DNA of 30,840 nucleotides from positions 1 to 30,840 of the IMG/VR virus record IMGVR_UViG_3300042332_000905; one strand, given 5' to 3'. The notes below the pieces were generated by a model that saw only the letters and a list, made by a program, of their open reading frames with translations, was not told the DNA's origin and searched no databases. This document shows positions 14,069 to 27,867 of this stretch, in pieces. The translations under genes were made by a program, and so were the position numbers. The stretch's first letter is position 1, and each line of letters starts with the position of its first letter. The DNA comes from a virus (Duplodnaviria > Caudoviricetes).

Positions 14069-15709
14069 TTAGAATGAACCACCAGTGATTGGGTTTCTCA
14101 TAACAATTTTCAATACTTTAGTTGGATCTTTAACCCAGATTGAAGGCATGATTTGAGACATCATCACTTTATAACCATTGAAATTACCAGAAGACTGGAA
14201 TCCTTGAGATCTACCCATATAGTCCATAGTACCATTTTGGTAGAACCATTTTAACTCACTATCCCATTTCAATTTCAACAAGAAGATGTTGTCATTAGTG
14301 TTGTCAGTGATATCAAAAATGATAAAGTTATAAGAAGATAATGGGAAACCATCAATGATTGGGTTTTCAATATCATTAGTGTGAACATTGTCAAATGCTG
14401 GGTTCAACACAAACTTAACATTAGCTAAGAAAGGAATTGTGTATGAAGTAAAAGCAAATCCAAAGTTCAAGTCCATTGCACTTTTACCAGAAATTGCATT
14501 GATACCAGATTTGTCCATATTTACATATGCACCAGCTAATCCTGTTCCAAATGCTTCTTTCTTGATTGCCTCATTGATCATTTTCATACCAGCCATACCA
14601 GTTTGAACAATAAGTTCTTTTTGTGGATCTGGACCTTTGAACTCAACTTTACCATTGTAGAAGTTGAAGATTTCAGCTCTAAATAAGTCTAAAGTAAATC
14701 CAGACTTGTTGTAGATTCTCTTGAAAGAGTTATCTAACTGAGCCCAAAGTCCTACTGATAATCTAATATCATCTGGTCCATCTTGCTTAATTCTACCACC
14801 TTGTCCCCACATTAAGTAAGTCTCAATATCTGTAGCAATTTTAGTCAAGTGAGCAGCTTCCATTTTAGTTAAGAAAGAACGAGTCAATGATCCATTGTCA
14901 TATGCTTTCTTGATGTAGTCTTTACCCATTGTCGCAACCATTTGGTCAATGTTTGTGATAGATGGGTCAATGTTTTTGTCAAATGATCTCCAGATCTCAG
15001 TTACAGGAACTGAACCATCTGCGTTAAGACCACCTTTCATCATCATCTCAGCACGAGAAGAAACAGAATAGTGAACATGAGCTTCAGCACCACCAACAAA
15101 ATTGTAGTACTCTCTGAAACCATTTGTTAATTCACCAATGTCAGAGAATTTCTCTCCATATTCTCCACGAGCAGAACCTTTTCTGAAGAATTTAGTTCCT
15201 GGTTTCAAATATTTGTCAGCCTCTAAAGTAGCTCCATTGTTGTTATTTACCAATTGTACTGTATAGATAAATCCATCAGCAGAAGGTAAAATATCATCAG
15301 CTACAATAAATAACTCTAAACCTTTGTATTTGTCATAAGTGATAATATCACCATGTCCAAAAACACGTCTGTTTAATTTGATTTTGAATGTTACACCATC
15401 AGCACCCAATAAAGCTCCATTAGCTTCAATGTTTTCAGTGATGTAAGGTAAATCTTGTACAATTGGAGTTTGCCATTTGTACTCTCCTCTTGGAGTGTCA
15501 ACTAGAATGGTATTCTTTCCACCAAAAGACGACATTTGGTAAAGAGGCATCTCAACTTTTTGTGACATAGCCCAAAGATCAACAGGACCTAAATCCATAG
15601 GTTCTGCAGATTTAAGCATGTTTACTAAGTGATAAGAATCTAAGTGAGATGACACTTTGTAGTTAGTGTCTCTTAGGAACAAACCATTATTCAATACAGG
15701 TGTTGCCAT
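14069..15709 (-). CDS. Major capsid protein (crAss-like)
   Basis: 546 aa. Third gene after terminase (terminase-portal-acidic protein-this). C-terminus GYKVMM...PSIWVKDPTKVLKI typical of crAss-like HK97-fold MCPs. Confidence 0.85.
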   Translation of the reverse strand: MATPVLNNGLFLRDTNYKVSSHLDSYHLVNMLKSAEPMDLGPVDLWAMSQKVEMPLYQMSSFGGKNTILVDTPRGEYKWQTPIVQDLPYITENIEANGALLGADGVTFKIKLNRRVFGHGDIITYDKYKGLELFIVADDILPSADGFIYTVQLVNNNNGATLEADKYLKPGTKFFRKGSARGEYGEKFSDIGELTNGFREYYNFVGGAEAHVHYSVSSRAEMMMKGGLNADGSVPVTEIWRSFDKNIDPSITNIDQMVATMGKDYIKKAYDNGSLTRSFLTKMEAAHLTKIATDIETYLMWGQGGRIKQDGPDDIRLSVGLWAQLDNSFKRIYNKSGFTLDLFRAEIFNFYNGKVEFKGPDPQKELIVQTGMAGMKMINEAIKKEAFGTGLAGAYVNMDKSGINAISGKSAMDLNFGFAFTSYTIPFLANVKFVLNPAFDNVHTNDIENPIIDGFPLSSYNFIIFDITDNTNDNIFLLKLKWDSELKWFYQNGTMDYMGRSQGFQSSGNFNGYKVMMSQIMPSIWVKDPTKVLKIVMRNPITGGSF

Positions 15710-23881: not shown

Positions 23882-24266
23882 TTTTTTGTTTTTTATAGTT
23901 ACGTTTTTCTTCTTCTTTTTGCAATCTTTTTTCATTTTCCTCATTAAAGTTAGCAAGTATTTTTTCAAATAATTGTAATTCATTCTTTAAATTGGAAATG
24001 TTTTTATACTCTTGAAAATTAGGTTCTTCTATCTTCTCAAGTTTTTCCAAAGCTTGCGTGTACATTTTGTGTTTTTCTATAAGCTTTTTGCGATTGACCA
24101 CAAATGTTCCTAATTTGTTTACATATATTCTAGTATGCTCCATTTCAACAAGCATCTTAAGTATATGCTTATAATAACTAGACATGATTTCATCTACAGT
24201 ATCACCTGATAGATTTAATCTGTCTGCTACTATTGCAGAAATTTGTTTACGCTTGACTGGTCTCAA
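23868..24266 (-). CDS. HU/IHF-like DNA-binding protein with C-terminal coiled coil
   Basis: KQISAIVADRLNLS...VDEIMSSYY..I...L......IYVNKLGTFVV matches the HU/IHF pattern. TTG start. Confidence 0.7.
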   Translation of the reverse strand: MRPVKRKQISAIVADRLNLSGDTVDEIMSSYYKHILKMLVEMEHTRIYVNKLGTFVVNRKKLIEKHKMYTQALEKLEKIEEPNFQEYKNISNLKNELQLFEKILANFNEENEKRLQKEEEKRNYKKQKNELN

Positions 24267-24642
24267 CTGATAAAAATTTATAATCCAATAACACGTTACC
24301 TTTACTATGTACAGTAATTGCAGTAGATAATTGTATCATCTTCTTATAAGTATCAGATTTTACAACTAGTTTACGCTTCTCAAGTTTTGTAAGTTTGTTT
24401 CTTACATTCTGAGATTTTACAGCAAATTCTTCTGGCTCTATGTCTTTGTGATTCTGTTTAACAATAAAGTTGCAAAACTTGGTTAAATCAATTGGGCCAG
24501 TAACCCCTAACCAAGTAAGCAATTCCAAATCATTATCTGCTATTTGCTCTTTTTTAAAAAACACAAGGTCAGTTATGAGCTGATACTTGACCAACTCATA
24601 ACGTGTTAACCTATACTTTTTTTCAATTTTTGTTACTTCCAT
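24247..24642 (-). CDS. Putative winged helix-turn-helix protein
   Basis: NDLELLTWL ... SQNVRNKLTKLEKRKLVVK resembles a wHTH recognition helix and wing. Confidence 0.55.
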   Translation of the reverse strand: MEVTKIEKKYRLTRYELVKYQLITDLVFFKKEQIADNDLELLTWLGVTGPIDLTKFCNFIVKQNHKDIEPEEFAVKSQNVRNKLTKLEKRKLVVKSDTYKKMIQLSTAITVHSKGNVLLDYKFLSVETSQA

Positions 24643-24997
24643 GAGAGAAATATTCTTTGCGAGTTCTAAGACCTGAGTCTTTAGGATATCTTCCTGTTAT
24701 TCTTCTTTCTGTTACAACCCCTTCTTCATTGAATGTTTCTACAATTATAGAGTTCTCAACTGTTGTTAATGCCTCAGCTAACGAGTAACTTCCATCAGGG
24801 TTCCTTTGTTGTGTGGTTACTTGGATTACCACATGATTACCACAAGGCATAGCTTTTGTAGATTTCATCCAACCCTCAGCCTCAGATGACGCTTTAGAAA
24901 TTAATCTAAACATATCACCATCTCCCCAGAATTGAATATCCTTTACATTTTTTCTAGCACCATTTGCAGTAGTGTTGTGTAGTGATTTACTTTCCAT
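24623..24997 (-). CDS. Conserved phage protein with GWMKSTKAM motif, candidate anti-defence protein
   Basis: 124 aa. FRLISKASSEAEGWMKSTKAM...VIQVTTQQRNPDGSYSLAEALT. Function suggested only by its neighbours. Confidence 0.6.
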   Translation of the reverse strand: MESKSLHNTTANGARKNVKDIQFWGDGDMFRLISKASSEAEGWMKSTKAMPCGNHVVIQVTTQQRNPDGSYSLAEALTTVENSIIVETFNEEGVVTERRITGRYPKDSGLRTRKEYFSHGSNKN

Positions 24998-25079
24998 AGG
25001 TTTTAGTTTTGATTATTGTTATGTGATGCACCCAAGATTTTAATGCTTCAATCTTAGATTTGTTGCTTGACTTGCTCAT
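24987..25079 (-). CDS. 30-aa basic microprotein, not in the ORF track
   Basis: MSKSSNKSKIEALKSWVHHITIIKTKTYGK*. Starts 4 nt after the upstream stop and overlaps the downstream ATG. Confidence 0.6.
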   Translation of the reverse strand: MSKSSNKSKIEALKSWVHHITIIKTKTYGK

Positions 25080-25083
25080 GATT

Positions 25084-25332
25084 TTAATATTTAAGGGTTA
25101 ATACTTTTACCACATTCATTTGAGCATTTAACACTTCGCCAATAGCGTGGTTATAAAGCTTGTCTGCTAATGGAGAAGAACCAAGATTTTTAGCTCTGTA
25201 TTCTTCTTCCAATAAATCTGCAGCTTTAGCAAATAATGCTTTTGCTTGTGCTACCTTGTCATCTGCTGAAGGATTGAAATTTAATCCTACTAATTGCTCT
25301 CCAAATGTTAGAGCTCTTGCTTCTACTTCCAT
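25084..25332 (-). CDS. Acb2/Tad1-like helical-hairpin protein, candidate cyclic-nucleotide sponge
   Basis: 82 aa. LTFGEQLVGLNFNPSADDKVAQAKALFAKAADLL...AIGEVLNAQMNVVKVLT. The two helices and the final A..E...AQM..VK..T helix recall the Acb2/Tad1 hairpin family (from memory). Confidence 0.6.
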   Translation of the reverse strand: MEVEARALTFGEQLVGLNFNPSADDKVAQAKALFAKAADLLEEEYRAKNLGSSPLADKLYNHAIGEVLNAQMNVVKVLTLKY

Positions 25333-25958
25333 TATTTTAATTTATTTAGGTTACGTAATCTTTCTAAAACATCATGGCTTGTGTGACCATCAAATTCATA
25401 TTTGGCTTTTGGCTCTTCAGGTATTTGGAATAAATCCCAGTCTTCAGCTTTATAATGATTTGTAATCATTCCATCTGGTAACATTGCTACTACAATAAAC
25501 CATCCACCACCAAAACAAAGTTTGCCATCATGGTGTTTCCAAGATTTATGCACATCATGCTTATGTGTGTAAAAAGGTCTTCCTTCTTTCCACCAGTGAG
25601 GATGTTGAGTTTTTTCTTTGGCCCACTCATTGAACAATGCTGCATTGTACATTTTTCTAAAATCATACAACTCATTGTACGTATGGTATCCATCAGAGAA
25701 CTCACCAATTTCAGATTCTGTTGCATAGGTCATTTCAAATATTTCTGGTTTGCAAGGATAGAACTCACCCTTTACACCTTTGATGATATAATCACCTTTG
25801 CTTGCACGCATAGATCCCTCAAGTGTATGGATAAATAAGCCATCACCTTTGAACTCATATTTTCTATCTGTACCTTGGCAAAATTCTGCAATGTCTAGCG
25901 AGTTATCACCAGTCCATTGCATTGCTTCAATCACTACAGGTTTTTTTGCGTATCTCAT
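25332..25958 (-). CDS. Two-domain fusion: PGDYG-like SH3-type phage domain plus WDGH-like His-rich domain
   Basis: N-terminal KKPVVIEAMQWTG...IHTLEG.M.AS.GDYIIKGVKGEFYPCKPEIFEMTY. C-terminal SDGYHTYNELY...KSWKHHDG...WFIV...NHY...WDLF...FDGHT..DVLERL. Confidence 0.7.
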   Translation of the reverse strand: MRYAKKPVVIEAMQWTGDNSLDIAEFCQGTDRKYEFKGDGLFIHTLEGSMRASKGDYIIKGVKGEFYPCKPEIFEMTYATESEIGEFSDGYHTYNELYDFRKMYNAALFNEWAKEKTQHPHWWKEGRPFYTHKHDVHKSWKHHDGKLCFGGGWFIVVAMLPDGMITNHYKAEDWDLFQIPEEPKAKYEFDGHTSHDVLERLRNLNKLK

Positions 25959-26221
25959 TTGTCTTGGTATGTTAATGCTTTTTCTAATTCTTGATAAGTA
26001 GTAGCAACTTTATCAATTGTTTCTGTAAGGATATTTTGTTTCTCAGAACTAACAGCATCTATTAGTTCTTTGTCTAAAACATCTATTAGATACGCACAAG
26101 CTCTTTTACAAGTTTCAACATCTTTGTTAGTGCTTGGTTCCTTATCCAATCCTACCAGTTTTTCACCTCTGGTTAATTCTGGAATTTTAAATTCCATAAC
26201 CTGTTTGATTTCTTCACTCAT
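25955..26221 (-). CDS. Divergent paralog of the 82-aa Acb2/Tad1-like protein
   Basis: ELTRGEKLVGL...PSTNKDVETCKRACAYLIDVLDKE aligns with ALTFGEQLVGL...PSADDKVAQAKALFAKAADLLEEE. Both end K(A/V)LT. Confidence 0.65.
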   Translation of the reverse strand: MSEEIKQVMEFKIPELTRGEKLVGLDKEPSTNKDVETCKRACAYLIDVLDKELIDAVSSEKQNILTETIDKVATTYQELEKALTYQDK

Positions 26222-26559
26222 GATTTTAGCTTTAAAAATTGTACTATCACTTTAGAAAACTCACTTATGCAGTTTTCAAATTCTTTATGTGTCATGAAAA
26301 ATTTGTAATCTCCTTCTACTGATGGGTCATCATATCTGACTCTGTGTGTAGTAAACACTATCTCCATAATTTCATGATTAATTATTGACCAAACATAAGT
26401 AGGATCTTTTTTCAAAGACCTGGTTCCAATTGTCAATTTACATTCTAAACTATCAAAAGAACCTCCATCAGATTTTGAATCAGTAAACACATTGTAAGTC
26501 ATGGGACCAATGATTACCTTTTTGGGAAACACAATATCATTATGATCTATGATTACCAT
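26218..26559 (-). CDS. Zincin-like small protein with a variant HEXXE motif
   Basis: PKKVIIGPMTYNV...G.F......I...SIINHEIMEIVF resembles phage metallopeptidase-like proteins, with Glu in place of the second His. Confidence 0.5.
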   Translation of the reverse strand: MVIIDHNDIVFPKKVIIGPMTYNVFTDSKSDGGSFDSLECKLTIGTRSLKKDPTYVWSIINHEIMEIVFTTHRVRYDDPSVEGDYKFFMTHKEFENCISEFSKVIVQFLKLKS

Positions 26560-26828
26560 ACAACAGAAATGTCATATTCATTAATCAACATCTTCACATC
26601 TTCACCAATAGTAATTCTTTCAGCATTCATCAAAACATTTGAAGACACATAAATGAAATCTCCTTCTTTCACTGCTTCAACATCAGCAGATGTTTTGAAC
26701 ACTTCTAACTTTGACCATTGTTTGATCATCTCTGTTTCCAATTGTTTTTCAACTTCTGGAGTCAACTCAATTACTGACTCTGGTCTTTTAGGTATTGTCA
26801 ATAATACCTTTCTTCCTAATAACTTCAT
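26553..26828 (-). CDS. GroES-like co-chaperonin
   Basis: 91 aa. MKLLGRKVLL ... VKEGDFIYV ... ITIGEDVKMLINEYDISVV mirrors Cpn10 (PLGDRVLV...VKVGD.V...I.GE...L..E.DI). Confidence 0.7.
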   Translation of the reverse strand: MKLLGRKVLLTIPKRPESVIELTPEVEKQLETEMIKQWSKLEVFKTSADVEAVKEGDFIYVSSNVLMNAERITIGEDVKMLINEYDISVVW

Positions 26829-27074: not shown

Positions 27075-27098
27075 TTTGGATATATTTTAGTTATGGCA

Positions 27099-27129
27099 CA
27101 AATATAACCAAAAGTTTAAACTTTGCAAA
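27099..27129 (-). promoter_or_regulatory. Consensus Bacteroidota primary-sigma promoter with a 14-bp palindrome in the spacer
   Basis: Minus strand TTTG (27129-27126) - N19 - TATATTTG (27106-27099). Palindrome AAAGTTTAAACTTT at 27111-27124. Confidence 0.8.
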
Positions 27130-27149
27130 TTTAGTATTATATTTACAGC

Positions 27150-27626
27150 ATGTATGTAACAAGAGAAATTGAATGGGAGGCTACACAGCTTTTGGCTGAA
27201 GCACTTGATGGTTTTGATACACATCCATCAGATACACTAATGGTAATAGTAAGTCCTGACTATAGTGCAAGTATAGGTATGCACATGGTTCATCACTTAA
27301 GTAAAGATGGCGAGATGCTAGACTTTGACTTCATAGAAGTACCATACCCAGATCAAGACGTAAACATATACATAAACAAATTCCTCAACTCTGGCAGCCT
27401 TGCCAAATACAAATCCTATAAACAAGTAATCCTAATAGAAGCAGGAGTAATCTCTGGCAAAAACTACACATGGATAACTAACATTCTCAAACAACACAAC
27501 ATTCCCTTCATCACCTCAACCCTGTTTGAACACAACAACAGCCAATACAAATCTAACGCAGTTGGCATGTACTACAGCACTGACCTAGAATTTTACTGGG
27601 AACGCCACAATAACCACTGGGCGTAG
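27150..27626 (+). CDS. Phosphoribosyltransferase-fold protein with a variant PRPP loop
   Basis: 158 aa. KQVILIEAGVISGKNY aligns with the type I PRTase motif (VLLVDDVI.SG.T). Ends LEFYWE. Confidence 0.6.
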   Translation: MYVTREIEWEATQLLAEALDGFDTHPSDTLMVIVSPDYSASIGMHMVHHLSKDGEMLDFDFIEVPYPDQDVNIYINKFLNSGSLAKYKSYKQVILIEAGVISGKNYTWITNILKQHNIPFITSTLFEHNNSQYKSNAVGMYYSTDLEFYWERHNNHWA

Positions 27627-27651
27627 GAAATTTTTTTTGGAAATTTTTTTT
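27626..27651. repeat. Perfect tandem 13-nt repeat GGAAATTTTTTTT x2
   Basis: Copies at 27626-27638 and 27639-27651. Confidence 0.9.
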
Positions 27652-27727
27652 AGGGTGTGGAATTTGTGATGAGGATGTGAGGATAGGGACTCCCACCATT
27701 GACAGCCCCCCCAAGACACAGAAACAA

Positions 27728-27749
27728 CTGCACCCCCCTATGCATTCAG
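27728..27749 (+). promoter_or_regulatory. 22-nt repeated motif, copy 1 (candidate phage RNAP promoter)
   Basis: CTGCACCCCCCTATGCATTCAG, 18/22 identical to the copy at 30552. Confidence 0.5.
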
Positions 27750-27765
27750 AGAGAACTCCTACACT

Positions 27766-27867
27766 ATGAATAAGATCTATGTGATAGCAGGAGTAAGCAT
27801 AGTTGCTAAGACTCTGGAAGAAGCGTATGCGTACTTCAGAGACATGTGCACCAATGCAAAAGGCTAG
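27766..27867 (+). CDS. 33-aa microprotein, not in the ORF track
   Basis: MNKIYVIAGVSIVAKTLEEAYAYFRDMCTNAKG*. Preceded by the 22-nt motif and a TCCTACA leader, followed by hairpins. Confidence 0.6.
   Translation: MNKIYVIAGVSIVAKTLEEAYAYFRDMCTNAKG

Follow-up and report, generated by a model that had tools for sequence, protein, structure and literature searches.

Phage sponges, which sequester the second messengers of host immunity, are listed as seven families in the available text of a 2026 review (PMC13712596). In the accessible part of Tal et al. (bioRxiv 10.1101/2025.07.12.664507), Lockin is described as a hexamer that binds six molecules of the Thoeris signal 3′ cyclic ADP-ribose (3'cADPR) via K35, K45, S46, T47, K48, and residue 59, and Sequestin as having been discovered through fusion to known sponges; as far as PMC12265669 (Tal et al.) is accessible, LockinB inhibits type I Thoeris only. 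The Acb2 family, represented by T4 Vs.4 (7UQ2) and PaMx33/PaP2 Acb2 (8H2J), has a two-helix hairpin fold. In the available portion of the supplements (PMC12393519) to Hadary et al. (bioRxiv 10.1101/2025.08.24.671296), nine tested Acb2 rows retrieved by motif comprised seven that inhibit a CBASS (an antiphage signaling system based on cyclic oligonucleotides), two of these also inhibiting type I Thoeris, and two that were inactive. Here we analyzed a 30,840-nucleotide (nt) stretch of viral DNA (IMG/VR record IMGVR_UViG_3300042332_000905, positions 1 to 30,840; hereafter the window), focusing on five minus-strand genes at 24623..26221. They make up a modular cassette, and its products likely trap the second messengers of host immunity. 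Its Lockin and Acb2 genes are new members of known families, and its 208-amino-acid (aa) protein is a two-domain candidate for a new kind of sponge.

Lockin and Acb2 members of the cassette

The initial annotation of the window, made from its letters alone, had marked five tightly coupled small genes as a candidate cluster of immune-signal sponges. All five open reading frames (ORFs) were recovered, with junction gaps of −4, −1, +4, and −11 nt in the order 88-, 208-, 82-, 30-, and 124-aa product, and the idea of a sponge cluster held up, as the cassette contains a Lockin with six of six ligand contacts and an Acb2-clade gene.

The 124-aa protein (24623..24997, minus strand) matched the Lockin structure 9P8L (LockinA) by phmmer at an expect value (E) of 3.6e-24 over residues 1–87, and K35, K45, S46, T47, K48, and Q59, all six ligand contacts, were kept at the same numbers; residue 59 is printed as "O59" in Tal et al. 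and is Q in the 9P8L chain. LockinB was the nearest of the five tested Lockins, with approximately 57 of 80 residues identical by eye. By its sequence this protein is thus a Lockin, a published anti-Thoeris sponge family; the initial annotation had missed this and put the "GWMKSTKAM protein" forward as an uncharacterized new candidate. Like the known Lockins, it is encoded by a short phage gene beside other sponges, and it differs from them in that its C terminus is extended by about 30 aa, a part that overlaps the following gene by 20 nt. It would form a hexameric ring trapping 3'cADPR, and, judged from its tested homologues, it is very probably active on type I Thoeris; both hexamer and activity are predictions.

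The 82-aa protein (25084..25332, minus strand) is the product of an intact gene and belongs, on sequence grounds, to the Acb2 clade. The deciding evidence came from the table of Acb2 homologues in Hadary et al.: in the part of PMC12393519 available, row 7962 was identical at 65 of 75 residues by eye (~87%), and proteins of the 88-aa type described below are listed as well. At least 250 relatives were found. A weak PF24729 match occurred in 39 of 100 relatives (best E, 0.0026), every other family being matched in at most five, and one relative (L139; such handles denote database loci) was both matched by the 82-aa family profile and above the Pfam cut-off, at 39.1 bits. The proposed resemblance to the Acb2/Tad1 hairpin family was thereby substantiated, and the predicted structure was a helical hairpin with a pLDDT score (predicted local distance difference test) of 92.7. 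The clade is distant, with 8% to 12% identity to the solved Acb2 chains and under the Pfam cut-off, and hhalign of the family against Tad1, canonical Acb2, Sequestin, and Acb4 gave values all below 1%, with seeds of one to four sequences being of uninformative depth. As for function, the available supplements (PMC12393519) include, as the tested homologues closest to the 82-aa protein, four with its pattern G..VG..FN/AQM.VK (nos. 15, 24, 36, and 41), of which three (nos. 15, 36, and 41) inhibit a CBASS and none inhibits Thoeris. By analogy, the 82-aa hairpin would form a hexamer trapping CBASS cyclic dinucleotides, and this predicted anti-CBASS sponge is probably active on a CBASS.

A second Acb2-clade gene, diverged in frame, encodes the 88-aa protein (25955..26221, minus strand). 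The two proteins shared 41% identity over 44 aa (E, 4e-8), and the 82-aa clade profile matched the 88-aa protein at E 1e-13. The earlier description of two paralogous helical-hairpin proteins therefore stands as to paralogy, and as to the hairpin for the 82-aa model, the only copy folded. In the alignment, the 88-aa gene was orthologous to the Acb2-clade gene standing first at the same place in two relatives (L001 and L002), whose products matched PF24729 at E 0.002–0.005. It differed from these orthologues by 41 and 39 residues, whereas they differed from each other by 14. The changes were concentrated in the FNPS loop and the second helix, with no frameshift. Among 100 relatives of the 82-aa protein, 13 alignment columns are invariant; of these residues the 88-aa protein kept seven and lost F19, N20, A70, Q71, M72, and V75 (by eye). 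Since 6 of 13 invariant residues were lost, we filed the gene as a derived copy and not as a working Acb2; since four sequence variants on several contigs share this state, the divergence is not an assembly error. No close copy of this variant was found in viral contigs, and one identical copy was found in metagenome contigs. L001 and L002 each have one Acb2-clade gene, whereas the window has two, one of them stripped of the FNPS and AQMN motifs, and its 82-aa copy resembles a different lineage (L165, seven changed residues). Acquisition of the second, 82-aa copy would have released the resident copy from constraint, and the sequences suggest that the 88-aa copy was probably freed by that arrival. 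It may well be decaying; possibly it has been retuned.

The two-domain protein and its fusion partners

The 208-aa protein (25332..25958, minus strand) proved to be a two-domain fusion, as first annotated. Residues 1–84 (25707..25958) matched PHROG 419 at E 1.3e-34; this N-terminal domain also matched PGDYG-named proteins, which are look-alikes, and is called PGDYG-like here. Residues 85–203 (25332..25706) are the Pfam domain WDGH (PF25311; E, 1.6e-33), in which H92, H142, H168, H192, D190, and C148 were invariant among 92 sequences. For the enzymes that the initial annotation had also proposed, these invariant His, Asp, and Cys residues are the one hint. The model had a pLDDT of 92.8, with a beta-rich PGDYG-like domain. 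No solved relative was found by PDB sequence or profile search, by VIA, or by Foldseek at E≤0.001, a level at which the 82-aa model had no match either. The top Z in a wide VIA search was 3.9, which is no proof of a new fold, as the domains were not folded separately. For WDGH, the ESM Atlas gave no usable match beyond its own family, and a search of SBSphiJ, SPO1, and phi105 gave none, the control also having matched nowhere.

Kinship of the PGDYG-like domain with Tad2 (PF11195) had no support, there being no Pfam match and an hhalign value of 0.1% against a weak five-sequence Tad2 profile. Tad2 was absent from the listed fold matches of the two-domain model, and one sequence with the PGDYG-like domain stands in the Tad2 table of PMC12393519, as available. 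WDGH as a form of Acb5 was dropped, because the Acb5A sequence, compared by eye only, shares no motif with either domain. Neither domain was found described, or named as anti-defence, in the literature searched, on which paywalled papers, bioRxiv supplements, and the Acb5 table might bear; the available text of three reviews (PMC13712596, PMC13728456, and PMC13243611) names neither, and the 124-candidate screen table of Tal et al., in the part of PMC12265669 available, contains none of the motifs TLEG, DGYHT, and WDGH.

Fusion partners of the PGDYG-like domain were counted on the best 120 of its 1,524 longer matches, using precomputed Pfam labels. They were WDGH (25), DUF551 (8), Lockin-type PF26760 (7), Tad2 (6), Sequestin (5), and an Acb2/Tad1 hairpin (1), so that known sponges were fused to the domain in 19 of the 120; zinc ribbons and a MazG-like pyrophosphohydrolase occurred as further partners. 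Pfam confirmed the partners on 65 of the 120, and BLAST confirmed those of the Lockin type. WDGH was joined to Tad2 in a named phage protein (WOZ57315) and to an Acb2-clade hairpin in one of 120 matches (P0206). This resembles the fusion signal of Sequestin (PF21825), which was found via fusion to Tad2 and Acb4. Sequestin, however, is the commonest partner of Tad2 and Acb4; for the PGDYG-like domain, non-sponge partners are numerous, and its fold, which is beta-rich, has no solved relative.

Neighborhoods were surveyed in viral loci, 80 per family before dereplication, with far windows that hold 12% to 19% fewer bases and with profiles of Tad1, Tad2, Sequestin, Acb4, and canonical Acb2 that were built from one to four sequences and are insensitive. 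After dereplication, another known sponge lay within 1.5 kilobases (kb) in 24 of 63 Lockin loci and at 3–4.5 kb in none of them. For the PGDYG-like domain, a known sponge was found in 9 of 39 loci near and 1 of 39 far, and for WDGH, in 9 of 60 near and 2 of 60 far. Of the 63 Lockin loci, 22 had the PGDYG-like domain itself within 1.5 kb. Of 50,697 records of cultured phages, 1,056 (about 2%) encoded the domain, among them those of SPP1 (H43) and SPO1; in SPO1 it is gp34.82 (L300:4989-5267), 2.1 kb from the Tad2 gene gp34.65 within a long row of small genes.

The 208-aa protein would thus add one or two candidate signal-handling modules to the cassette, and both of its domains are short, as sponges are. 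As its fusion partners suggest, the PGDYG-like domain is quite possibly a binder of an immune nucleotide, which would probably be neither 3'cADPR nor histidine-ADP-ribose (His-ADPR). On the same kind of evidence, WDGH might, with lower probability, bind or cleave such a nucleotide at its His-rich site. We tentatively entertain a wider scheme in which the 208-aa protein would join two new anti-immune families, their folds being unsolved. Its PGDYG-like domain would be a sponge of wide distribution whose signal is neither 3'cADPR nor His-ADPR, WDGH would degrade an immune nucleotide as a histidine-dependent enzyme, and the stripped 88-aa Acb2 would be a sponge changing its ligand.

A variable slot upstream of the packaging genes

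The window carries a major capsid protein gene at 14069-15709 (PF23898; E, 3.2e-30) and proteins with portal and large terminase matches (PHROG 6681 and 6547); from this crAss-type capsid protein with terminase and portal, its sequence is that of a crAss-like phage. The minus-strand genes form one run from 27074 downward that includes capsid, portal, and terminase. None of 17 genes checked had a Shine-Dalgarno match, and their leaders were mostly A-rich, which presumably fits a Bacteroidota host. Tight coupling extends upstream of the cassette to a 91-aa gene and downstream to 22209, where a 123-nt gap precedes the terminase gene. The cassette had been placed inside the packaging/structural operon; it is in fact upstream of the terminase gene on the same strand, with 2.5 kb and five genes between them, outside the terminase-portal-capsid block.

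To describe this slot, we anchored a survey not on a sponge but on the 131-aa core gene at its downstream border (24247..24642, minus strand), an unbiased anchor, and covered 2.6 kb upstream in 54 loci, not dereplicated. Among the 20 close loci, the Acb2-clade gene was present in 17 (the other three end too early), Lockin in 8, the PGDYG-like domain in 6, and WDGH in 2. None of the four was found in the 34 more distant or fragmentary loci, four of which lack upstream DNA. Near-identical pairs differed by Lockin (L250 and L251) or by a 113-aa gene (L244 and L245), and within this one slot the PGDYG-like domain occurred alone, fused to WDGH, or fused to Lockin. The slot is a hotspot of gain and loss, and its variable part takes in the 113-aa gene (26218-26559, minus strand), which had no Pfam or PHROG match and whose HEIME motif we take to be metalloprotease-like. 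A similarly compact variable locus between core genes, with known sponges, sponge fusions, and unknown genes, is the anti-signaling hotspot of N4-like phages, as described in the available part of bioRxiv 10.64898/2026.06.04.730250. That hotspot differs in phage order and in cargo (Acb4-Sequestin, Bes1/2, and RyR Tad) and was tested by deletion, whereas the slot of the window is known from sequence and lies upstream of head-packaging genes.

Further candidates among the contents of the slot were 69-aa and 67-aa unknown genes and a weak DUF1599 match with an E of 0.015 (L012:4014-4223, L012:4408-4758, L256:458-661). In related cassettes, the first gene was swapped for Tad2 (L160/L081; L160:4706-4993) or for a Tad1-like hairpin fused to a PGDYG-like domain and WDGH region (L165:4781-4993).

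The 30-codon ORF (24987..25079, minus strand) encodes a basic microprotein with a pI of 10.2. Its homologues, at 65% to 77% identity and with start and stop kept (L002/L003, L033, L165, and L081-L083), follow WDGH or the PGDYG-like domain and precede Lockin or an Acb2-clade gene. Against L002, 17 of 30 codons were identical, 6 synonymous, and 7 amino-acid-changing, a pattern that moderately supports coding, and the ORF is most likely a conserved, translated passenger that couples translation into Lockin. A 137-aa database protein (P0349) on a single short contig begins with the N terminus of the microprotein and then runs into Lockin; it might represent a deletion variant, or else an assembly error.

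Upstream, the slot is bordered by the 91-aa gene (26553..26828, minus strand), GroES-like by eye; PF08240, of the GroES-like fold, was matched weakly by four homologues (E, 0.02–0.09) and not by the window protein. In 27 of 80 loci, a small GroES-like gene lay no more than 1.6 kb from Lockin, in several orders (L004, L005, L008, L017, L038, L039, L063, and L067). The slot of distant relatives lacks it, and it may belong to the module instead of forming a border. Beyond it, a divergent 158-aa gene (27150-27626, plus strand) matched PHROG 29004 and had a phosphoribosyltransferase-like motif by eye. The stretch at 27630-27770 is non-coding and richer in GC; sequence resembling it stands upstream in L241, L259, and L263, and it is possibly an origin or a genome end.

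Judged by strand and spacing alone, it is plausible that the cassette is expressed with the head-packaging block. A promoter scan returned 32 sites versus 39.2 ± 6.2 by chance, no excess, and one weak terminator-like hairpin (24495-24512) was found, inside a gene. An RNA run (X1) held 0.06 of the words; its contigs touch the cassette, covering 25084-25275 without differences, and are uninformative on level, strand, and co-transcription. The promoter of the minus-strand run must lie in the short divergent intergenic region at 27075-27149. Late expression would be reasonable because, in the accessible texts, prohead proteases are described as late activators of some CBASS enzymes (PMC12991175) and Thoeris is reported to have capsid triggers (PMC13243611; bioRxiv 10.64898/2026.06.04.730250). 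The cGAMP (cyclic GMP-AMP)-binding activity of SPO1, according to the part of bioRxiv 10.1101/2024.12.30.630793 available, appears early.

Alternative explanations and implications

Several results weigh against reading the whole cassette as a set of sponges. The 82-aa protein itself had no Pfam, PHROG, or PDB match by sequence or profile search. Its model aligned with T4 Vs.4 (7UQ2) in VIA at Z 6.7, with a root mean square deviation of 3.0 over 61 residues, at rank 3 and tied with unrelated hairpins, and Foldseek gave E 3.6 for Acb2 and placed T4 Vs.4 at rank 23. In the fold comparison that the initial annotation had suggested, the match of the predicted hairpin to Acb2 thus did not stand above those to unrelated hairpins. 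Homologue no. 24, in the available supplements (PMC12393519), showed no activity in any of the seven systems. The partner segments fused to the PGDYG-like domain in 96 newly listed proteins fell into 43 clusters, of which known sponges made up 6, DUF551 and unknown partners being commoner, and the fusion rate is a raw count without a control domain for comparison. With the narrow profiles used, 30 of the 39 PGDYG-like loci and 51 of the 60 WDGH loci had no sponge detected within 1.5 kb, six of the nine sponge-positive PGDYG-like loci share one Acb2-clade cassette and are not independent, and Pfam on 130 near and 130 far small ORFs listed two Tad2 versus none. The expected association with known sponges was thus seen as a near/far excess and as sponge fusions, and not as a sponge near most loci. 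Furthermore, SBSphiJ encodes the PGDYG-like domain (E, 2.7e-23; L299, 97548-97787) and is blocked by Thoeris of types I and II, as stated in the accessible part of Tal et al. (bioRxiv 10.1101/2025.07.12.664507), and the cGAMP screens of SPO1 lysate, in the portion of bioRxiv 10.1101/2024.12.30.630793 available, had gp1.3 and not gp34.82 as top match. Because SBSphiJ is Thoeris-sensitive and the SPO1 screens named gp1.3, the ligand of the PGDYG-like domain, if it is a sponge, is probably neither a Thoeris signal nor cGAMP.

These observations lend some strength to a narrower explanation, in which the sponges are limited to Lockin and the 82-aa Acb2 and the 208-aa protein is a promiscuous accessory of insertion hotspots, acting in nucleotide metabolism or nucleic-acid binding and fused to sponges by mere adjacency. 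We regard this as a real, if not the favored, possibility. The breadth of the PGDYG-like domain in phage records, mostly without a sponge nearby, its joining to DUF551, zinc ribbons, and MazG-like pyrophosphohydrolase, its presence in SBSphiJ, and the DUF1599-like gene in the same slot would all be expected of such an accessory. What speaks for sponges instead is that four unrelated sponge families, in several independent clusters, are partners of the domain, that WDGH is separately joined to Tad2 and to an Acb2-clade hairpin, and that sponges are enriched near over far. It is rather improbable that the 208-aa protein is an anti-defence protein of another kind, contacting proteins of the signaling systems or altering phage development in the manner of Bes1/Bes2 or Tad3-8. 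The N4-like hotspot does hold non-binding inhibitors beside its Acb4-Sequestin fusion (bioRxiv 10.64898/2026.06.04.730250, as accessible), and neither domain resembles a solved sponge, but fusion into sponge oligomers better suits a ligand-binding module, and WDGH retains a His, Asp, Trp, and Tyr set like that of a buried site. Very unlikely, finally, is an Acb2-clade gene that serves as a near-core assembly or regulatory factor in a block of ordinary late-gene cargo. Its near-constant presence in close loci beside a GroES-like gene, the weakness of the PF24729 match, and the generic nature of the hairpin fold would suit that role, but the gene is absent from the slot in the 34 distant or fragmentary loci, tested relatives inhibit CBASS, and in cassettes of varying gene order it has Lockin, Tad1, or Tad2 as its neighbor.

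A modular cassette of likely sponges thus remains our preferred reading. The PGDYG-like domain, repeatedly fused to four sponge families, offers a cheap and direct test for an eighth family. Its occurrence in a laboratory phage sensitive to Thoeris suggests a signal not yet matched, and its occurrence in the tractable Bacillus phages SPO1, SBSphiJ, and SPP1 makes deletion and binding tests easy. The literature searched says little on counter-defence in crAss-like phages, for which the slot provides a fixed address at which further candidates can be mined.

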